In this document: in pieces, positions 8,863-56,981 of the stretch
Layout: each line of letters begins with the position of its first letter
Position numbering within the stretch: the stretch's first letter is position 1
From: an uncultured bacterium
GTDB lineage: Bacteria > Patescibacteriota > Minisyncoccia > Phycocordibacterales > Phycocordibacteraceae
Assembly (NCBI GenBank): GCA_903825105.1
Contig: CAIJZI010000008.1
Coordinates: 8,401-72,400, forward strand
Direction: 5' to 3'
DNA length: 64,000 bases
Made by a program: the position numbers and the translations under genes
Notes under the pieces: model-generated
What the model was told of the DNA's origin: nothing
What the model saw: the letters and a program-made list of their open reading frames with translations, nothing else
Databases searched by the model: none

Positions 8863-9624
8863 ATGGACACACAAGAACCAACACTCGATGAAAGTATCCA
8901 GCAGGTGATGCAGACCTTGCCGCCCGTGATTCGTGATTATCTTTCAGCAGGGAAGTACACAGAGGTTGCGAAAGGTTTAATCACGAAATATGGGCTCCAT
9001 GTCGATCAGGGAGGCATTCTCGAACGCGAGATAATGTTGCTTTTGATGGGTATCGAGAACCCAACAGAATTTATAAATGCGCTTATTGAAGAGGCGAAGC
9101 TCGATGCGAAGGTTGTAGAGAACATTGTGAAGGATGTGAATGACCAAATCTTCGCTCCACTTAAAGAAGCAGAGATGAAGAGCGACACTACCGAGCCAGA
9201 GCCAAGTCATTTTCATTTAGAAAATAAAATTCCTCATCCAGTTCCTGCGCCAGTGAGAAATGAGATTCACCACCCGCCACTCGGGCCCGCGGCAGCCGTC
9301 ACGGCGCCAGCTCCTGCCATTACTCCTGTTGAAGCGCCCAAACTCTTGGCGGAGGAGAAGCTGCTTGAAGACCATGAAGAGCCGCATCTAGATGTAAGGG
9401 ATAAGGTGCAAGCCCCGACGCAAGAAGTCGTGGCCCCGACCGGGAGCGTCGGGGGTATAAACTTAATACCCTTTCCGCCGAAAAAGATTGTGCCACCACC
9501 CCATCCTTTGCCAGAGGCTACGGAGGGCACAGCAGAAAAACCAATTTCTCCGACTCCACCTAAAGTCCCGCCACCTCCAGTCAAACCGTATTCAGTTGAT
9601 CCTTATCGCGAACCGATCGAATAA
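8863..9624 (+). CDS. hypothetical protein with globular N-domain and proline-rich C-terminal half
   Basis: ORF with in-phase codon usage; PxP-rich low-complexity C-terminus; last gene of the envelope cluster. Confidence 0.5.
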   Translation: MDTQEPTLDESIQQVMQTLPPVIRDYLSAGKYTEVAKGLITKYGLHVDQGGILEREIMLLLMGIENPTEFINALIEEAKLDAKVVENIVKDVNDQIFAPLKEAEMKSDTTEPEPSHFHLENKIPHPVPAPVRNEIHHPPLGPAAAVTAPAPAITPVEAPKLLAEEKLLEDHEEPHLDVRDKVQAPTQEVVAPTGSVGGINLIPFPPKKIVPPPHPLPEATEGTAEKPISPTPPKVPPPPVKPYSVDPYREPIE

Positions 9625-9649
9625 AACATCGCGGTGGCAAGTGCTGGGG

Positions 9650-9678
9650 TTGCATTTTCTCAGCAATTCCATTATATT
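9650..9678 (+). promoter_or_regulatory. sigma70-like promoter TTGCAT-N17-TATATT for the rpsL-rpsG unit
   Basis: Hexamers read directly from the sequence; a leader hairpin GACCCctgaGGGTC plus U-run (9685-9709) lies between the promoter and the rpsL ATG. Confidence 0.5.
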
Positions 9679-9711
9679 GTTCTTGACCCCCTGAGGGTCT
9701 TCTTTTTCTAA

Positions 9712-10119
9712 ATGTCCACCATCAATCAACTTTCTCGAAAGGGCCGAAAGAACAAAGCGTCTAAGACGAGCGTGCTCGCGCTTACCCGCGGTTTTAATAC
9801 ACTTAAGAATCGACCGACTTTTTATCCGTCTCCGTTTAAGAGAGGGGTCTGCACCAAGGTCACGACCAAGACGCCTCGTAAGCCGAACTCCGCTATTCGA
9901 AAGATCGCGCGCGTGCGCCTCACGAACGGTATGGAGGTCACAGCTTACATCCCAGGCATCGGGCACAACCTTCAGGAACACTCAGTCGTTCTGCTTCGCG
10001 GTGGCCGTGTTAAGGACATCGGCGTGCAGTACACGATCGTTCGCGGGAAGCTCGACACAACTGGCGTCGACAAACGCCGCAAAGCGCGCTCACGATACGG
10101 AGCGAAGAAGCCGAAATAA
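9712..10119 (+). CDS. rpsL: 30S ribosomal protein S12
   Basis: MSTINQL...PKKPNSA...RGGRVKD canonical S12 sequence. Confidence 0.97.
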
Positions 10120-10159
10120 TCTTTTATTTTTAAATATTTAAACATTTAAATATCTTTAT

Positions 10160-10624
10160 ATGCGCCGACCACTGAAACACAAGAGAACCTGGAGACCAGA
10201 TCTGAAGTATGGATCTGAAACTTTGTCGCGCTTTATAAACGCAGTGATGTGGAGCGGGAAGAAGGATACCGCGCGCGCAGTCGTCTATGATGCCTTCGCT
10301 GTGATAGAAAAGGATGGCGCGAATTCGCTCGAAACCTTTGAAGCAGCGCTCCGCAATGTCTCGCCTCTTATGGAGGTGCGTTCTCGACGTGTCGGTGGCG
10401 CGAACTATCAGGTGCCACGCGAAGTCCCACAGAATCGCCGCCTCGCACTCGCATTCCGTTGGCTTATCAACGCCGCCCGCTCTAAGAAGGGAAAGCCTAT
10501 GGCAGAAAAGCTCGCCGCCGAGCTCCTCCTCGCCGCAAAGAATGAAGGTGATGCGATTAAGAAGCGCGATGAGATGCATCGTATGGCAGAAGCGAACAAG
10601 GCTTTTGCTCACTTCGCTTGGTAA
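10160..10624 (+). CDS. rpsG: 30S ribosomal protein S7
   Basis: MRRPLKHKR... S7 signature; follows rpsL as in the str operon. Confidence 0.97.
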   Translation: MRRPLKHKRTWRPDLKYGSETLSRFINAVMWSGKKDTARAVVYDAFAVIEKDGANSLETFEAALRNVSPLMEVRSRRVGGANYQVPREVPQNRRLALAFRWLINAARSKKGKPMAEKLAAELLLAAKNEGDAIKKRDEMHRMAEANKAFAHFAW

Positions 10625-10685
10625 TTTGCGAAGCAAATTACCCTGAGCGTAGTCGAAAGGTTGGTTTTTGTGCTATATTTTTTAT

Positions 10686-10997
10686 ATGAAATATCGCAAC
10701 ACACTCCAGAAAGGTTCAGTACGCAACATAATCTTTCGCCAAGGGAAGGTGTGGTTTGGGGTGGCTCTAGAATTTAACATTGTTGAAACAGGGGATGACG
10801 CACAAGAAGTAATGATTCTTCTTGAAGAGGCGGTGCGCGGCTATCTCGCCTCAGCTCGTAAAGGTAAATTGAACGCAGCTGTTCTCAATCAGAAATCAGA
10901 ACCAGAATATGAAAATCTATGGCTTGGGAAAAATAATCCAAAGTTGATCCCGTCTCCCATTCAGATACACACTTTTAGCGAACGAACCTTTGCATAA
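10686..10997 (+). CDS. hicB: HicB-family antitoxin-like protein (N-terminal HicB fold only)
   Basis: About 100-aa protein immediately upstream of a clear HicA; AT-rich relative to flanks; HicB-like beta-alpha pattern (VALEFNIVETGDDAQEVMILLEEAVRGYL). Confidence 0.5.
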   Translation: MKYRNTLQKGSVRNIIFRQGKVWFGVALEFNIVETGDDAQEVMILLEEAVRGYLASARKGKLNAAVLNQKSEPEYENLWLGKNNPKLIPSPIQIHTFSERTFA

Positions 10998-11002
10998 TTT
11001 CT

Positions 11003-11239
11003 ATGCCGCGCGGGCTCAATAACTGGTCTTTTAGGGACATAAAACATTTTCTAGAACAACACAATTTTCATTTGAATCACATCGAAGGTAGTCATTATTT
11101 TTACACCGGTTCCTACAGAGGAGTCGTCCGCCAAGTTTCAATCCCATTTCACGGGTCAAAAACGATTCATCCTAAGACGATGAAAAGTATTGTGCGCCAG
11201 TCCGGCGTCCCGCAAGAAGAGTGGATGAAATATAAATAA
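11003..11239 (+). CDS. hicA: HicA-family mRNA interferase toxin (YcfA-like)
   Basis: 78 aa with GSH motif and HGSKTIHPKTMKSIVRQSGV C-terminus typical of HicA; 6 nt after the hicB stop. Confidence 0.7.
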   Translation: MPRGLNNWSFRDIKHFLEQHNFHLNHIEGSHYFYTGSYRGVVRQVSIPFHGSKTIHPKTMKSIVRQSGVPQEEWMKYK

Positions 11240-11311
11240 CAATAAACTGCGATTGACACTTTGTGTCAGGGGGGGGGGTAGGATTAAGGGTGTTATTAAT
11301 CCAAAAAATAT

Positions 11312-11854
11312 ATGAGCATAGAAAATCCCGAAAAATATACTCCAAGCGATGAAGAAATTAAAAAAGCAGGAGAAAATATGACAGATGCGCAAGCATATAT
11401 ATCAAACAAAAGAGAAGAGAGCGTCAAAAAATTAAAAGAAATTGGTGTAGATGGTTATTTAGAGAGACTCAGTGACGGGAAGATAAGCGGTAAAATTAAT
11501 GGTCATAAAATTGAGATTGTCCAAACTGGCGATAGCCATATGTTTCCTCATTATGAGGTTTTTGTTGATGATAATTTTAAATTAACAGAAGGCGAAGCTC
11601 ATCGCTTCGCACATAAATACCTTGGTTATAATTCTGAAAATGTCGCTGGCTACATAAAGTCTGAACGAAAGACCGTAATGATAAATTATAAAAAACTCGA
11701 TGGCACCTTAGGAAGGTATAGTGATACTACACATAAAAATATCGACATGCTCAAAGAAGCAGAGAAATTAACAAGAACAGAAGAGGGACAAAGACAAATT
11801 GAAGAACAAATTCAAGCAAAGGGAGAAAAAATGCTGAAAGAAATAGGTTTGTAA
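11312..11854 (+). CDS. hypothetical protein (180 aa), strongly AT-rich, horizontally acquired
   Basis: Long ORF with about 35% GC versus about 53% in flanking genes; preceded by a G10 tract and palindromes. Confidence 0.55.
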   Translation: MSIENPEKYTPSDEEIKKAGENMTDAQAYISNKREESVKKLKEIGVDGYLERLSDGKISGKINGHKIEIVQTGDSHMFPHYEVFVDDNFKLTEGEAHRFAHKYLGYNSENVAGYIKSERKTVMINYKKLDGTLGRYSDTTHKNIDMLKEAEKLTRTEEGQRQIEEQIQAKGEKMLKEIGL

Positions 11855-11925
11855 TTCAAAAGTTGACTCCTTTGCGCTTTAACCTTATATTTCTCTGCGG
11901 GTTGTACAAATTCAAAAACAAAAAA

Positions 11926-12126
11926 ATGAAAGGGGAAATAGAGTTGCCACCGTCTATTCAAGAAATAAACAGTGACGAAAAGTGTCGTTACTGTAATCTG
12001 CCAAGGGGATTGCACGGCATTTATGCCAGGCTTTTCAAGCGTCGGGGCGAGCTCGACCACCAAGGGCATCATGGCGACGACGAAGAGCCCGAATGCTCCG
12101 GCTTCGAGTCGGCGTCGATAACTTAA
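11926..12126 (+). CDS. possible small Cys/His-rich protein (66 aa from MKGEI...)
   Basis: CRYC...HQGHHG...C motif; followed by a plus-oriented terminator; competes with an antisense ORF, so low confidence. Confidence 0.25.
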   Translation: MKGEIELPPSIQEINSDEKCRYCNLPRGLHGIYARLFKRRGELDHQGHHGDDEEPECSGFESASIT

Positions 12127-12143
12127 ACCCAATCAACCCAACA

Positions 12144-12180
12144 GAGGTGGGACCCTACAGTCCCGCCTCTTTGCTTTTTC
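12144..12180 (+). terminator. intrinsic terminator (GAGGTGGGAC...GTCCCGCCTC + U-run)
   Basis: 10-bp stem with one G-U pair, followed by TTTGCTTTTT. Confidence 0.7.
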
Positions 12181-12240
12181 ACCATTTTCAGCTATTGTAC
12201 TTATAACGCCTCGGCGTCTTTTTATTTCCTACTATTATTT

Positions 12241-14388
12241 ATGAACCGCGACTATCCACTAGAAAAAGTGCGCAACTTCGGCATCATCGCTCACATCGAC
12301 GCGGGCAAGACGACTGTGTCTGAGCGCATCCTCTTTTATACCGGCAGTCAGCACAAGATCGGCGAGGTGCACGAGGGCGAGACCACGACCGACTGGATGG
12401 AACAGGAGCGCGAGCGCGGCATCACTATTACCTCGGCTGCTATCACTTGTTTCTGGAGCCGAACGAGCGAGAAAGATAAAAAGGATGTTTCGAAGAAAAC
12501 GCGTTTCAATATTATCGACACTCCGGGGCACATCGACTTTACCGCCGAGGTGCAGCGTTCTATGCGTGTGCTCGACGGCGCGATAGTCGTCTTCGACGGC
12601 GTGTCTGGGGTAGAACCACAGTCAGAGACCAACTGGCGCTATGCCGACGACGCGAGTGTCCCGCGCATCTGTTTCATCAATAAGCTTGATCGCATCGGCG
12701 CTTCGTTCGAGCGTTCCTATGCGAGCATTCTCGACCGGCTTTCACCAAAGGCGATTCGTATGCAGATTCCTATCGGAGAAGAATCTCTCCATGAAGGCTC
12801 GATCGATCTCCTCACGATGAAAGGGTACAATTTCGTCGGCAATATGGGCGAAGAAGTTGTTGAAATCCCTGTCCCAGAGAGCCTTCTCGAAGAGGCGAAG
12901 AAATATCGTTCAGAACTTATCGAGCGCATCGTTGAACAGGATGACGCGGCGATGAATGCATATCTCGAAGGGAAGGAACCGTCGCTTGAAGAATTAAAAG
13001 CAATTTTGCACAAGGCAGTTGTCGCGAATCAGATTTTCCCTGTCTACTGTGGCAGCGCGCTTCATAATAAAGGTGTTCAGCTCGTACTCGACGCCGTTGT
13101 CGATTATCTTCCTTCACCGAAGGAGTTGAAGCCAGTTACTGGCATTAATCCTAAGACTGGTGGACCTGTCGAGCGCCATGCCGCTGACGATGAGCCATTT
13201 TGTGCGCTCGCCTTTAAGCTTCAGACCGACCCGTTCGTTGGTGCATTAACCTTCTTCCGTGTGTATTCAGGAACGCTCTCTGCTGGCTCGTATGTCTATA
13301 ACTCGACCACAGGTTCAAAGGAGCGCGTGGGCCGTATCGTGCGTCTTCAGGCAGACAAAAGAGAAGAAGTGGCACAAGTTTTCACAGGAGAAATCGCTGC
13401 TGCTGTCGGTTTGAAAGATACGAAGACTTCGCACACGCTCTGTGACGAAGCGAATCCGATTATTCTCGAACAGATTAAATTCCCTGAACCAGTGGTGTCG
13501 CTTCGCATCGAACCGAAGACCAAGGCTGACCAAGAAAAAATGGGTGTCGCTCTGCGTAAGCTCTCTGACGAAGACCCGACCTTCCGCGTCTCGGGCGATG
13601 AAGAGACGGGCGAGACGATTATTTCTGGTATGGGTGAACTTCACCTCGAAATTCTCGTTGACCGAATGAAGCGTGAATTTAGCGTGATCGCTGATGTGGG
13701 GAAGCCGCAGGTGGCGTATCGCGAAACGATTCTCGGCGCTGCTGATGCTGAAGGGAAGTATATTAAGCAGACCGGTGGTCGCGGCCAGTATGGCCATGTG
13801 AAAATTAAATTGAAAAAGCTCGAACCGCTCGAAGAGGGTGCGAAGATCTCGAAGAATATCACGCGCGAAGACCACTTCGAATTCATCAACAACATCAAGG
13901 GGGGTGTCGTGCCACAAGAATATATCCCAGCGGTGGAGAAGGGCGTTCGCGAAGCGATGGCGAGAGGATTCCTCGCAGGCTTCCCGATGGTGGATGTGTC
14001 AGTCGACCTCTACGACGGTTCGTATCACGATGTCGACTCTTCAGAAATCGCTTTCAAAATCGCGGCATCAATGGCCTTTCAAGATGCAGCAGGGAAGGCG
14101 AAGGCAGTTATTCTCGAGCCGATTATGCGCGTGGAAGTCATTGTCCCAGATAAGTTTATGGGCGACATCACTGGCAACTTGTCAGGAAAGCGCGGGCAGA
14201 TCGAAGGCACCGAAGAGCGTGGAATGAATAAGGCGGTGCATGCGAAAGTGCCGCTCTCTGAAATGTTCGGTTATACCACAACGCTGCGCTCAATGACTGA
14301 AGGCCGCGGCAATATGACGATGGAGTTCGACCACTACGGCGTCGTGCCAAACAACATCGCGACGGACATTATTGCAAGTCGGAAGTAA
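12241..14388 (+). CDS. fusA: elongation factor G
   Basis: [17 protein letters not shown] and NKLDR GTPase motifs; 715 aa. Confidence 0.98.
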
Positions 14389-14509
14389 TAAACATCTTGC
14401 ATTTATATGTACCATTGCGTATAGTTGTTAGAACGCATTGAGGCGTAACTCGACTGGTGTTTTGTCGAGGATTTATTCGTGATTTTATTAATTTAAATTA
14501 CCAGATACT

Positions 14510-15709
14510 ATGGCAGAATTTAATCGTTCGAAGCCGCACATGAATGTCGGCACCATCGGTCACGTTGACCACGGGAAGACGACGCTTACCGCGTCTATTC
14601 TCCACATCCTCTCGATGATGACAGCGCAGGGCTACAGCGCACGCGTCGAAGGAGTTGACAATATCGACAGCGCCCCAGAAGAGAAGGCACGCGGGATCAC
14701 TATCGCTCTCCACCACTCGGAGTACGAGACCCCGAATCGTCACTACGCACACATCGACGCCCCAGGGCACGCTGACTACATCAAGAACATGATTACTGGT
14801 GCTGCCCAGATGGACGGCGCAGTACTCGTGGTCGCAGCGACTGACGGTGTGATGCCTCAGACACGCGAGCACATCCTTCTCGCGAAGCAGGTGGGTCTTA
14901 AGAAGCTCATCGTATTCATCAACAAGGTGGATATGGTCGCAGAAGCAGATCTTGTTGACCTCGTTGAAGAAGAAATTCGCGAATTGCTCACCAAACAGGG
15001 CTACGATGGTACAAACACGCCGATTATCCGCGGCTCAGGCCTCAAGGCCCTTGACGCTAAGAGCGTTGATGAAGAGTACGCAGTGAAGGTGAAGGAACTC
15101 GTCGACACAATGGACACCTACTTCGATCTCCCAGAGCGCGAAATCAGCAAGCCATTCCTTATGCCGATTGAAGACATCTTCTCGATCGAAGGTCGTGGCA
15201 CAGTGGTCACTGGCCGTATCGAGCGCGGTGTTATCAAGGTTGGTGAGGAAGTTGAAATTGTTGGTATCAAGCCAACAGCTAAGACGACCGTCACCGGTAT
15301 TGAAATGTTCAACAAGCAGCTCCAAGAGGGAACAGCAGGCGACAATGCCGGCATTCTTCTCCGCGGAACGAAGAAGGAGGATGTGCACCGTGGCCAGGTT
15401 CTCGCGAAGACTGGCTCGGTCACTCCACACACCGACTTCGAAGCAGAGGTGTATGTTCTTGGAAAGGATGAAGGAGGCCGTCACACGCCATTCTTCTCTG
15501 GCTACAAGCCACAGTTCTATATCCGAACCACAGATGTTACGGGCGAAGTAACGCTCGCAGATGGAAAGGAAATGGTGATGCCAGGCGATACAACAACCTT
15601 CAAGGTTAAACTTGTTGCCCCAGTCGCTCTCGAAGCAGAACAGCACTTCGCTATTCGCGAAGGAGGTAAGACCGTCGGCGCTGGCGTCGTGACGAAGATC
15701 ACTGCGTAG
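14510..15709 (+). CDS. tuf: elongation factor Tu
   Basis: [21 protein letters not shown]; 399 aa; own promoter TTGCAT-N17-TATAGT at about 14399-14428. Confidence 0.98.
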
Positions 15710-15793
15710 ATAAAAGATGTAAGGTTCAAGGTATAAGCAAAATTCAAAAAATAATTACTTAAACCTTAAATCTTATCCCTTACACCTACTCTC

Positions 15794-16201
15794 ATGCCTA
15801 CAGCTAAGACTACAAAGCCAATAGCGAAGAAAGCAAAAGCAGCTCCTAAAAAAGTTGCTGCGAAGAAAACCGCACCAGTAGCTGTCGCTCCAGCCGAGCA
15901 CAAGCTGCGCATCCGCGTCTGTGCCTACGAGCACAAGATTCTTGATCTCTCGGTGAAGCAGATTATGGACACCGCCGCCCGCTTTGATGCGGTCGTCGTT
16001 GGCCCAGTCCCGCTCCCGACTGAGATTAAGCGTTGGACAGTGAACCGTTCTACCTTCGTCCACAAGGACGCTCGCGAACAGTTCGAGATGCGCATCCACA
16101 AACGCCTCATAGATATTCTCAATCCTCTCCCGAAGGTGATCGAGGCCCTCACGAACCTCAATCTCCCAAGCGGAGTCACGATAGATGTGAAGATGGTTTA
16201 G
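15794..16201 (+). CDS. rpsJ: 30S ribosomal protein S10 with 30-aa Lys/Ala-rich N-terminal extension
   Basis: Core RIRVCAYEHKILD...THKDAREQFEMRIHKRLIDI matches S10; extra basic N-tail. Confidence 0.93.
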   Translation: MPTAKTTKPIAKKAKAAPKKVAAKKTAPVAVAPAEHKLRIRVCAYEHKILDLSVKQIMDTAARFDAVVVGPVPLPTEIKRWTVNRSTFVHKDAREQFEMRIHKRLIDILNPLPKVIEALTNLNLPSGVTIDVKMV

Positions 16202-55111: not shown

Positions 55112-56755
55112 ATGGATGAGAATAAGTTGAGAGAAATTATAAGGTGTGCTCGCGAGAATGAGAATGTCGAGTTTAAGTCTGCATCAGACAGTTTTTCTGT
55201 CCTCGGAGGCGAAAGAGAGAATAAGAAATCTTTGTATGGATATTGTACAGCTATTGGTAACGAGGGAGGTGGGCGTATTGTTTTTGGAGTGACTGATGAA
55301 CGAGAGATTGTCGGAACGAAAGCTTTTCAAAATATTGAAGAGATCAGGTCTCAGATATACGAAAAAATGGGTGTTAAAATCGGTATTCAAGAATTTTTAC
55401 TACCGCAACGAGTTGTGGTTATTGATGTACCGGGACGGCAAATTGGTAAAATATTTACATTCCATAATCGGTATCTCACACGAGTTGGCGAAGAACTTGT
55501 AGAAATGAAACAGGATGAGATAGCTAAGATTCTTGCGGAGACGCAAGAGGATTTTTCAGCAAAATATTTGGATTTTGGATTAGAAGTGTTGGATCCGCAA
55601 GCTATAAAGAAAATGCGCGAATTATATGAGAAGAAGGCGTTAAGCACCACGAATGCTTCTAAAGCATCACTGACAGATGTTCAGTTTCTTTCCGATCTCG
55701 GGCTACTAAAGAACAATAAGATTAACAACTCAGCTTTGTTATTGCTTGGGACCACCGAATCATTACGTGATTTGCTTCCCGATGCAGAGATAATTTTTGA
55801 ATACAGAGTAAATCAAAATGATACACATTATTCCGACAGGTTGAATCTTCGCCAATCCCTAGTGTTTTCTTTGGATATTTTATGGGACAAAATAAATTCC
55901 CGTAACTTCGTGTCTCAATTACGTGAGCGCCTAATGCGGCGAGACATTCAGGCGTTTAACGAAGATGTAGTTCGTGAAGCCATGAATAATGCTGTGGTGC
56001 ATAGAGATTACCAAGCGCATAAATCAATATTCGTGCGCCAAGATAATACAAAGATAGTCTTCGAAAACCCGGGAGGTTTTATGCCAGGAATTACGCCGGA
56101 AAATATCTACAATCAAACTGCCTATAGAAATAGGCGACTGGCTGAATCGTTTGAAAAAATTGGTCTAGTTGAACGGTCTGGGCAGGGTGCGAATCTTATC
56201 TTCGAGAAGAATATTCGTGAAGGTAAAGGCATCCCAAAATATGAGACCACACAATATGATGTGTCGCTGTCTTTGTCAGCCCTTATTAAAGATGAAGAAA
56301 TCATTACCTATTTGGACGAGATAATTCAAAGCAAACAACTGGCTTTAACTGTTGATGACTTGGTGATTCTTGAAAAGATAAAGGATAGAACGTCCAAAGG
56401 GATAATGAAGAGAGATGTACAGAAATTTATTGATGCAGGGGTTGTTGTGTCCGACGGTGTTGGTAGGGGAGTGAAGTATTTTCTATCGAAGCAGTATTAT
56501 AAAGATCATGACAGACTTGGTGAATACACGAAGATTAAGGGACTGAGTCGGGCCGGTATCAAAGAACTAATTCTTGAACACCTTAATGCCAATAAGAAAG
56601 TAACCGCAAAGGAATGTCAGCAAATATCGCCAAACTTGAGCCCGAAAGACGTCGATAATATTTTACAAGAATTACGCAGAGATGAAAAAATCAAATTCAT
56701 TACATTTTCAGGAAACAAGAAGAATGGGCATTGGATTCTAATAGGTGAAAACTAG
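55112..56755 (+). CDS. Schlafen/AlbA_2 domain + HATPase_c_4 (RecG-C-like) putative ATP-dependent DNA-binding regulator or defence-type protein
   Basis: N-terminal YGYCTAIGNEGGGRIVFGV (AlbA_2-like); central NAVVHRDYQAHKSIFVRQDNTKIVFENPGG (HATPase_c_4 hallmark); AT-rich versus neighbours. Confidence 0.7.
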   Translation: MDENKLREIIRCARENENVEFKSASDSFSVLGGERENKKSLYGYCTAIGNEGGGRIVFGVTDEREIVGTKAFQNIEEIRSQIYEKMGVKIGIQEFLLPQRVVVIDVPGRQIGKIFTFHNRYLTRVGEELVEMKQDEIAKILAETQEDFSAKYLDFGLEVLDPQAIKKMRELYEKKALSTTNASKASLTDVQFLSDLGLLKNNKINNSALLLLGTTESLRDLLPDAEIIFEYRVNQNDTHYSDRLNLRQSLVFSLDILWDKINSRNFVSQLRERLMRRDIQAFNEDVVREAMNNAVVHRDYQAHKSIFVRQDNTKIVFENPGGFMPGITPENIYNQTAYRNRRLAESFEKIGLVERSGQGANLIFEKNIREGKGIPKYETTQYDVSLSLSALIKDEEIITYLDEIIQSKQLALTVDDLVILEKIKDRTSKGIMKRDVQKFIDAGVVVSDGVGRGVKYFLSKQYYKDHDRLGEYTKIKGLSRAGIKELILEHLNANKKVTAKECQQISPNLSPKDVDNILQELRRDEKIKFITFSGNKKNGHWILIGEN

Positions 56756-56889
56756 GAAGAAAATAGGAGGAAATATGAAAATTAATACGAAAAATAAGGA
56801 TACTATTTAGATTCTAATAGGTGAAAAATAGGAAGAAAAGTTGAGCGGAAATTAAGTCGACAGACCTTTCGGATTCCGATTTTCAATTT

Positions 56890-56981
56890 TGGCGGAGGGG
56901 GAGGGATTCGAACCCTCGATACGGTATTACCCGTATAGCGAGTTAGCAACCCGCCGCACTAGGCCTCTATGCGACCCCTCC
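56890..56981 (-). tRNA. tRNA-Ser (anticodon GCU), class II long variable arm, CCA encoded
   Basis: Hand-folded from the sequence: acceptor GGAGGGG/CCCCTCC, anticodon stem GCGGG/CTCGC, loop TTGCTAA, variable arm ATACGG/CCGTAT, T-arm GAGGG-TTCGAAT-CCCTC, discriminator G + CCA. Confidence 0.85.

Follow-up and report, generated by a model that had tools for sequence, protein, structure and literature searches.

A probable composite islet, with a hicBA pair and a gene behind a candidate poly-G promoter, between rpsG and fusA of a Parcubacteria-type bacterium

We analyzed the interval between rpsG and fusA in a 64-kb stretch of DNA from an uncultured bacterium (contig CAIJZI010000008.1; the window, as used here, is this whole stretch of 64,000 nucleotides). 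The interval is 1,616 nt long and, according to the list of open reading frames (ORFs) and their translations, holds 3-4 extra ORFs on the + strand. It is probably a composite islet at a recombination hot spot, in which an older Class 2 hicBA toxin-antitoxin (TA) pair is followed by a younger, AT-rich gene, here called gene X, with a promoter that contains a run of ten G residues (G10); we put the probability of this reading at roughly 0.7. A first-pass annotation had described the interval as one foreign TA islet. That description has to be changed, because gene X is absent from a sister lineage and has its own promoter, which indicates at least two layers of different age. The elements on which the argument depends are the following; loci used for comparison are referred to by L numbers.

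10160-10624, + strand: rpsG (ribosomal protein S7; Pfam PF00177, E 7e-56), the stop codon of which is the left boundary of the insert
10686-10997, + strand: hicB, 103 amino acids (aa) from ATG, assigned by adjacency, predicted fold and the Joint Genome Institute (JGI) names of its homologues
11003-11239, + strand: hicA, 78 aa, with a GSH motif (Pfam PF07927)
11253-11284, + strand: candidate gene X promoter with G10 (-35 TTGACA at 11253-11258, G10 at 11269-11278, -10 TAGGAT at 11279-11284)
11312-11854, + strand: gene X, coding for an acidic 180-aa protein of an uncharacterised family
11863-11891, + strand: P1, a strong sigma-70-like site (TTGACT-17-TATATT) found by promoter scan
12143-12180, + strand: intrinsic terminator with an 11-bp stem, a 6-nt loop and a T-rich tail
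12171-12198, + strand: P2, a promoter-like block (-35 TTGCTT, 16-nt spacer, -10 TATTGT) that overlaps the terminator tail
12206-12223, + strand: small hairpin ACGC-CTCG-GCGT with a T-run (CGCCTCGGCG), just upstream of fusA
12241-14388, + strand: fusA (elongation factor EF-G), the right flank, with all EF-G domains (Pfam GTP_EFTU, EFG_III, EFG_IV, EFG_C and others)

Inserted DNA between rpsG and fusA

Compared with close relatives, the 1.6 kb is extra DNA, as the first-pass annotation had proposed. The empty sites read rpsL-rpsG-fusA-tuf-rpsJ with an rpsG-fusA gap of 51 nt (L214, L220, L221) or 112 nt (L215, L216), and these relatives (S7 91.6% and EF-G 89.7% identical to the window) are about as near as the occupied site L004. 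The latter and L005, both groundwater contigs, have the order rpsL-rpsG-hicB-hicA-fusA without gene X, their S7 and EF-G being 91% and 88% identical to those of the window. The contigs L212 and L213, each 1 kb long and from other samples, match the window with 100% identity through rpsG into hicB. The small hairpin at 12206-12223 is common to the window, L004/L005 and the end of the 51-nt spacer in L214/L220/L221; it thus appears to belong to the ancestral rpsG-fusA spacer, so that the inserted DNA would extend from about 10625 to 12205.

In L004 the last part of rpsG is duplicated: a direct repeat of 56 nt from its 3' end (89% identity, copies 656 nt apart) brackets the hicBA pair, and the second copy begins at the hicA stop codon. 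We read this duplication as an insertion scar, and insertion by site-specific integration or by homology-assisted recombination is possible. Islets that integrate at the 3' ends of genes and are flanked by att-type repeats offer a comparison: as with those, relatives carry an empty site and the cargo varies between strains, the 56-nt duplication flanks hicBA in L004, and a TA module sits at the edge of the insert. The present case differs in that no integrase or recombinase is present, the bracketed unit measures only 656 nt, and the repeat has been lost from the window. Recombination, either homologous or illegitimate and facilitated by homology, would be an equally good explanation.

The base composition separates the two parts of the insert. 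Gene X has a G+C content (GC) of 0.341 and a GC at third codon positions (GC3) of 0.26, against a GC3 of 0.57-0.64 in its neighbours; it is the most AT-rich 543-nt stretch in the window and is compositionally foreign. The first-pass estimate of about 35% GC for the 180-aa gene was therefore close to the measured value, the lowest in the window. The GC values of hicB (0.429) and hicA (0.422) lie nearer to the window mean of 0.474, with rpsG at 0.544 and fusA at 0.521. The label of an AT-rich TA islet thus suits gene X and applies only mildly to the TA pair, which is not notably AT-rich.

The S7 protein of the window belongs to a cluster of 617 sequences formed at 90% identity, which also includes the S7 proteins of the empty-site contigs and the named members of which are Candidatus Kaiserbacteria or Candidatus Paceibacterota, and all 80 species-level loci with relatives of the HicB-like protein are from Patescibacteria. 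These assignments place the host among the Parcubacteria-type bacteria of the candidate phyla radiation (CPR), as a Candidatus Kaiserbacteria-like, ultra-small organism of groundwater.

An older and conserved hicBA pair

The proposed HicA toxin was confirmed by a match to PF07927 above the cut-off (E 2.4e-11, 44 bits against a cut-off of 27, profile positions 1-58 of 58) and by a match to PHROG 353 'toxin' (E 1e-9). Its histidine stands in a G-x-H context (HIEGSHYFY), which contains the GSH motif and aligns with the GGH of 1WHZ in a weak match (E 0.12). The 103-aa protein encoded upstream is identified as the partner antitoxin by adjacency, fold and the JGI names of its homologues. Among 65 homologues, four are labelled 'RNase H-like HicB family nuclease' by JGI, and the gene lies directly 5' of hicA in about 71 of the 80 Patescibacteria species loci, with a gap of 5 nt in the window. 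The AlphaFold2 model (predicted local distance difference test score, pLDDT, 92) has strands at 10-19, 22-27 and 32-36, a helix at 39-59, two short helices and a strand at 93-102, a topology that agrees with the partial RNase H fold (beta-beta-beta-alpha-beta). The designation HicB therefore stands on these three grounds and not on a family profile match in Pfam or NCBIfam. A search of PDB sequences with a profile of the HicB family returned nothing.

In Class 2 hicBA loci, hicB directly precedes hicA, has 63-103 codons and lacks a DNA-binding domain (Gerdes 2024, mBio, PMC10865869). The pair in the window resembles this class in its gene order, antitoxin first and toxin second, and in its 103-codon hicB without a DNA-binding domain (PMC10865869), and its HicA has the usual PF07927 domain, including the conserved histidine. 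It differs in that the Patescibacteria HicB subfamily is invisible to the HicB models of Pfam and NCBIfam, in that two short helices are inserted between alpha1 and the last strand of the HicB in the window, and in its unusual location inside the rpsL-rpsG-fusA cluster. A literature search found no report of a TA system in the str operon. The pair itself belongs to a known class, of which it is an ordinary member.

Between the window and L004, the ratios of nonsynonymous to synonymous divergence (dN/dS) are 0.034 for hicB and 0.067 for hicA, compared to 0.038 for rpsG and 0.061 for fusA. Such values point to strong purifying selection on hicBA, with both genes kept functional. The synonymous divergence is as saturated in hicBA (pS 0.70-0.72) as in the flanks (0.60-0.67); the insertion therefore appears to be old and to predate the split of the window and L004 lineages. 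The same hicBA family was found in many other contexts in the 80 Patescibacteria species loci, and between rpsG and fusA in none of them (0/80). The first-pass annotation had named the presence of the same genes in all relatives as an observation that would speak against a foreign islet; hicBA is indeed at this position in one sister lineage, but neither in other equally close relatives nor in the 80 hicBA loci. In L003 (4438-4876) a hicB 90% identical to that of the window lies between a 128-aa gene and secG, near groES/groEL, which suggests that the pair moves between contexts; the hicA of L003 has an internal deletion, which leaves an orphan antitoxin there. In L072, a Candidatus Vogelbacteria contig (2218-4534), a hicBA pair of the same family is located about 600 nt downstream of tuf, near the str/S10 region.

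A phage origin of gene X and hicBA was considered and dropped, since neither the X family nor the HicB family was present in the viral contigs of IMG/VR. The terminator scan detected none between rpsG and hicB, so that co-transcription of hicBA with rpsL-rpsG is possible, and toxin expression may plausibly be tied to that of translation genes, as the first-pass annotation had suggested.

Gene X and its poly-G promoter

The word-indexed search for homologues of gene X yielded two partial sequences, and the exhaustive profile search yielded 132 cluster representatives (E<1e-3), mostly of 125-160 aa. The alignment gives the family consensus KYxPSxEE..AE..MT..Q..LS..RE..LKExGVxGYLE..GxINGHxI..IDG..KY..LKDIGL-COOH. 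The proteins are acidic (median isoelectric point 5.0), and the member in the window has about 50 extra residues compared with the family length of about 130 aa, with predicted disorder at 105-140. In the AlphaFold2 core (pLDDT >90), two helices precede a sheet of four strands and a further helix, and C-terminal helices come after it. No Pfam family was found for 33 members, one weak PADLOC match (PDC-S15, E 0.0055) and one weak PHROG match were obtained, and there was no PDB match by sequence and no fold match in the PDB or among the BFVD viral structures. Exact look-up of the window HicA and X sequences returned no indexed contig.

Members of the X family occur in several contexts. The order is rpsG-hicBA-X-fusA in the window, X-fusA in L001 and rpsL-rpsG-X-GIY-YIG-fusA in L094; elsewhere X lies beside HIT/recJ (L002, L086), beside an IS200-type transposase and rpsP (L087/L088), or in another context (L095). 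The family is thus found in the rpsG-fusA slot of two lineages with EF-G proteins that are 71% identical to each other. Between L001 and L094 the EF-G proteins are 92% identical and the X proteins 40%, with homologous sequence downstream of X, from which gene X appears to turn over much faster than its neighbours. X occurs without hicBA in L086 and L094, and neither L004/L005 nor any of the 80 other hicBA loci has X beside the pair. We also observed that a small GIY-YIG nuclease gene lies between X and fusA in L094 (1684-1962), which is further mobile-looking cargo in this slot, and that X in L087/L088 (919-1344) lies directly upstream of an IS200/IS605-type Y1 transposase gene (1589-2020) and rpsP, in another ribosomal-protein neighbourhood.

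The sequences upstream of X in four loci share a run of G residues between the -35 and -10 hexamers, and a fifth locus has a promoter at the equivalent position.

Window, 11253-11284: TTGACA-N10-G10-TAGGAT, spacer 20 nt
L001: TTGACA-N9-G12-AACACT, spacer 21 nt
L002: TTGACG-N9-G10-TAGACT, spacer 19 nt
L086: TTGACG-N9-G10-TAATAT, spacer 19 nt
L094, equivalent position: TTGACA-N17-TATAAT, no G run, spacer 17 nt

The G10 is the sole G/C run of at least 8 nt in the window, and 617 kb of other Patescibacteria loci contained five comparable runs. We scanned public metagenome contigs with the pattern TTGACR-N4-G-N2-TC-(N)-G10+, which gave 116 stretches, 112 of them scorable. A TAnnnT hexamer abutted the G run at 68 of the 112 scored sites, and at 62 of 87 in low-GC contigs against a background of 2.1%. 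With -10 hexamers so far above background, we take these sites for genuine promoters whose spacer holds the tract. Metagenome contigs of low GC often show the layout TTGACA-N9-G10/11-TAnnnT (L096-L211, for example L098, L100, L130, L183 and L196). The genes behind it code for pilins, lipoproteins, surface proteins that bear YSIRK-type signal peptides, and numerous small acidic proteins. In three pairs of nearly identical promoters, each pair drawn from different samples, the tract lengths differ by a single G (L096/L099, L129/L162, L098/L134). Since the layout is kept in three homologous loci and is common in low-GC contigs, the X promoter is a candidate phase-variable promoter, and we infer that X expression is phase-variable.

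Promoters of this kind are known from pathogens: poly-G or poly-C lies between the -35 and -10 elements of porA and opc of Neisseria meningitidis, and poly-A in the vlp genes of Mycoplasma hyorhinis. The optimal spacing between these elements is 17 nt. The X promoter resembles these systems in having a G tract of at least 10 nt between recognisable -35 and -10 hexamers, in the differing tract lengths among X promoters (G10, G12, G10, G10) and in the high variability between strains of the gene behind it. It differs from them in that the host is an environmental CPR bacterium and not a pathogen, in that their products are surface proteins whereas X is small and acidic, lacks a signal peptide and looks cytoplasmic, and in that the X spacers of 19-21 nt exceed the optimum. 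A literature search found no paper joining phase variation with CPR or Patescibacteria.

An N-terminal X motif of about 35 residues (KYxP[ST]xEE..AE..M[ST]..Q..LS..RE) heads otherwise unrelated proteins in L180, L196 (335-aa ORF) and L203 (202-aa ORF), and these motif-bearing proteins lie behind poly-G promoters. This distribution suggests a shared N-terminal module joined to variable C-terminal parts. Several further observations concern the promoter regions. The -35 region of the window lies within a palindrome (TGACAC-TTT-GTGTCA, 11254-11268) that is not conserved at the other X promoters and is possibly an operator. In L013, two copies of a terminator hairpin with TTGACA-N9-G6/G8-TAATAT and 17-nt spacers (415-485 and 1740-1805) flank a 194-aa gene and hicBA, a region that resembles an array of variable genes, each with its own promoter. 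In L086, a 39-nt direct repeat (77% identity; 2268-2306 and 2842-2880) flanks a PaaX-like gene that lies just ahead of the X homologue and its poly-G promoter.

Recombination at the rpsG-fusA junction

Comparison of closely related strains pointed to exchange of DNA at this junction. The contigs L004 and L005 come from replicate samples of one groundwater well. They do not differ through hicA and the rpsG remnant, nor from the terminator 3' arm onward to fusA. Between these identical sides lie segments of 230-260 nt (L004 5597-5830, L005 1775-2030) that are unrelated, and neither variable segment contains a convincing ORF. Among the empty sites, L214 (3591-5216) and L215 (501-2187) show 100% identity over the 874 nt of rpsL and rpsG that end at the rpsG stop codon, after which the spacers are unrelated; the first ~500 nt of fusA are then 85-93% identical, and further on the identity is 98-100%. 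The pattern of L214 and L215 is that expected of a recombination tract starting exactly at the rpsG stop codon. Taken together, the alignments mark the rpsG-fusA junction as a strain-level recombination hot spot, the middle segment of which appears to be swapped between strains. The islet follows the same pattern: its left arm, hicBA, is old and conserved, its right arm (the terminator position and P2) is conserved, and the middle, occupied in this genome by gene X and its poly-G promoter, is swapped.

The right end of the islet and expression of fusA-tuf

The strong terminator proposed at the right end was borne out by folding: the stem at 12143-12170 is followed by TTGCTTTTT, and the whole element (12143-12180) has a free energy (dG) of -21.4 kcal/mol, with z = -5.7 against shuffled sequences. 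The associated claim that it closes the islet is correct as to its position at the right end of the insert, but it lies directly ahead of a promoter-like block shared with L004/L005. This block, P2, is conserved there as TTGCTT-16 nt-TAYTRT (with -10 TACTAT in these loci) and is missing from the empty sites L214/L215. It scores 8/12, under the threshold of the promoter scan, and we consider it a candidate fusA promoter. In L004 a hairpin of different stem sequence occupies the terminator position, and further upstream there are a terminator and a TTGACA-17-TAATAT promoter of its own. Because a terminator is followed by a conserved promoter-like block, fusA-tuf is probably uncoupled from transcription of rpsL-rpsG.

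In E. coli and most bacteria, the canonical str operon has the order rpsL-rpsG-fusA-tuf, which is among the most conserved bacterial gene arrangements. The window keeps this gene order and strand, and its close relatives keep the 51-nt rpsG-fusA gap. It departs from the canonical form by the 1,616-nt gap, a strong internal terminator and extra promoter-like sites, features that would probably make fusA-tuf a separate transcription unit.

P1 is the best promoter match in 9400-16000 (10/12), and a promoter behind X is also present in L001 and L094. Between P1 and the terminator lie about 250 nt of near-native GC, which contain the small Cys/His ORF of the first-pass annotation. That frame is open; it has no above-threshold family match in Pfam or NCBIfam and no counterpart in L004, and it is not called as a protein in the public collection. 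The recognition of a CxxH/CxxC (YyzF-like) protein in it was given up, as it depended on two sub-threshold matches to one small family (E ~0.03). The region, which folds with z = -2.6, is possibly a small RNA or a non-coding leader. A conserved leader or riboswitch in these 250 nt was likewise rejected, since L004 and L005 differ completely there and the alignment with the window is poor.

Discussion

The scheme that we favour, a composite islet at a recombination hot spot, would comprise two layers. In the first, hicBA would have entered right after rpsG, or within its last 56 nt, in an ancestor shared with the sister lineage. HicA would act as an mRNA-cleaving toxin, restrained through direct binding by a small HicB without any DNA-binding domain. 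The pair is probably transcribed by read-through from the rpsL-rpsG promoter, and its likeliest role would be that of an addiction or defence module, which would also make the islet hard to lose. In the second layer, the AT-rich gene X would have been added later with its own G10-spacer promoter, and slippage in the G tract would alter the -35/-10 spacing (20 nt here, 17 nt optimal), whereby X would be switched or tuned. The rpsL-rpsG transcript would run through hicBA and X and end at 12170-12180, and fusA-tuf would be restarted from P2 and/or by escape from P1.

Several points weigh against this scheme. With respect to the mode of insertion, the islet of the window lacks a flanking direct repeat, and none of its four ORFs matched a recombinase or integrase in Pfam, NCBIfam, PADLOC or PHROG. 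The hicA-X and X-fusA junctions are found in this one contig only. Searches of Pfam and NCBIfam with the HicB-like ORF gave no match at E<1 to any HicB family (for example PF15919 and PF05534), and the best Foldseek matches of its model in the PDB, which are HicB/UPF0150 proteins (3kwr, 3k6q, 5yrz_C, 4p78_A and 2yzt), are weak (E >= 0.45). All four poly-G X promoters have spacers longer than optimal, so the tract could have another role; no terminator is present between hicA and X, and read-through could express X whatever the state of its promoter. Finally, X is without a predicted function after the sequence and fold searches.

Other explanations deserve consideration against the same evidence. 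A native origin would make hicBA and/or X vertically inherited str-operon genes, lost in some relatives, with X perhaps being a translation-associated factor. The shared hicBA site of L004/L005 and L212/L213 with its strong purifying selection fits this, and the recurrence of X between rpsG and fusA in the second lineage (L001, L094) is hard to attribute to chance. We nonetheless regard a native origin as unlikely, because equally close relatives have the 51-nt gap of typical bacterial form, L004 carries the rpsG 3' duplication scar, the GC3 of X (0.26) departs from that of its neighbours, the X alleles are 40% identical where EF-G is 92% identical, and other X members lie beside HIT/recJ or an IS200-type transposase, or elsewhere. 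If, conversely, everything had arrived in a single recent event, with hicB, hicA, X and the small ORF as one AT-rich foreign unit closed by its own terminator that would stabilise the locus or link the toxin with transcription of translation factors, one would expect what is indeed seen in the comparison with empty-site relatives, a GC under that of the flanks throughout, and ORFs on one strand with no internal terminator. One would not expect a sister lineage with hicBA and without X, a hicBA pair as synonymously diverged as its flanks and hence old, beside an X far more deviant in composition, or an X family with its own conserved promoter that occurs without hicBA in L086 and L094 and is absent from the 80 other hicBA loci; the small ORF is, in addition, unsupported. 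We consider a single recent arrival quite improbable.

The adjacency of X to hicA, on the same strand and with no terminator between them, could also be taken to mean that X is a third TA component (a regulator, chaperone or second antitoxin) of a tripartite system, and in L013 hicBA is likewise followed by a poly-G promoter and a further gene. That gene is not a relative of X, however, no X homologue accompanies hicBA in L004/L005 or the 80 other loci, and X has its own promoter and occurs elsewhere without hicBA, which makes a tripartite system very unlikely. There is, finally, a slim chance that the poly-G run is a chimeric join made in assembly, for example through the poly-G read tails of two-colour chemistry. 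The occurrence of both X junctions in this contig only would fit such an artefact, as would the start of L001 and L002 within 50 nt of their poly-G runs. Against it, the arrangement of a -35 hexamer to the left of the run and a -10 hexamer and gene to the right recurs in three independent assemblies and inside the 41.8-kb L086 contig, a -10 hexamer abuts the run at 68/112 similar metagenome sites, and the rpsG-hicB junction is confirmed by other samples.

The str cluster of this CPR lineage thus tolerates and keeps accessory DNA, at a site that is a strain-level recombination hot spot. The hicBA pair is unusual for its location; less ordinary are the recurrence of the uncharacterised X family at the rpsG-fusA slot and its conserved poly-G promoter. 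A poly-G promoter is a known kind of switch. The lead of wider interest is the CPR genes that combine such promoters with the shared N-terminal module. Should the G tract indeed switch expression, uncultured episymbionts with reduced genomes would share the contingency-locus strategy of host-adapted pathogens. A much broader proposal, which we hold as doubtful, would make the rpsG-fusA junction, in Parcubacteria-type CPR bacteria, a hot spot dedicated to the exchange of cassettes. X would then be one of a set of small acidic proteins, spread across the CPR, that share the ~35-residue N-terminal module and hypermutable poly-G promoters. On this view ultra-small episymbionts would possess a contingency-gene system, the first to be described for this radiation, which might serve in host interaction or defence.

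Other features of the locus

The remaining elements of the str cluster and the islet are as follows.

9712-10119, + strand: rpsL (ribosomal protein S12), left flank of the str cluster, a 135-aa ORF 88% identical to the Pfam-annotated S12 of L004
10620-10642, + strand: hairpin over the rpsG stop codon, a perfect 10-bp inverted repeat (GGTAATTTGC-GAA-GCAAATTACC) with a centroid energy of -11.5 kcal/mol
11929-12126, + strand: small Cys/His ORF, 65 aa from ATG, or 87 aa if TTG 11863 is the start
14510-15709, + strand: tuf (elongation factor EF-Tu), by ORF and translation, 79% identical to the tuf segment of L072
15794-16201, + strand: rpsJ (S10, Pfam), the next gene after tuf

The hairpin at 10620-10642 has no T-run behind its stem and is hence no canonical terminator, and the terminator scan was silent there; the 10-bp inverted repeat is missing from L004 and the empty-site relatives. 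No recognisable Shine-Dalgarno sequence precedes the starts of hicB, hicA, X and fusA (10670-12240), so its lack before the small ORF is no evidence against that ORF. A scan of the whole window at the Rfam gathering thresholds gave one tRNA and nothing in the islet, and an E-value scan of 10600-12260 gave chance-level matches only. Elsewhere in the window, at 55112-56981, there is a 547-aa gene with Schlafen AlbA_2 and HATPase_c_4 domains, and the second most AT-rich stretch (GC 0.355) lies at about 56300. The gene abuts a tRNA-Ser(GCT) gene (56890-56981) on the opposite strand, and this region may be a second accessory islet, located at a tRNA gene.

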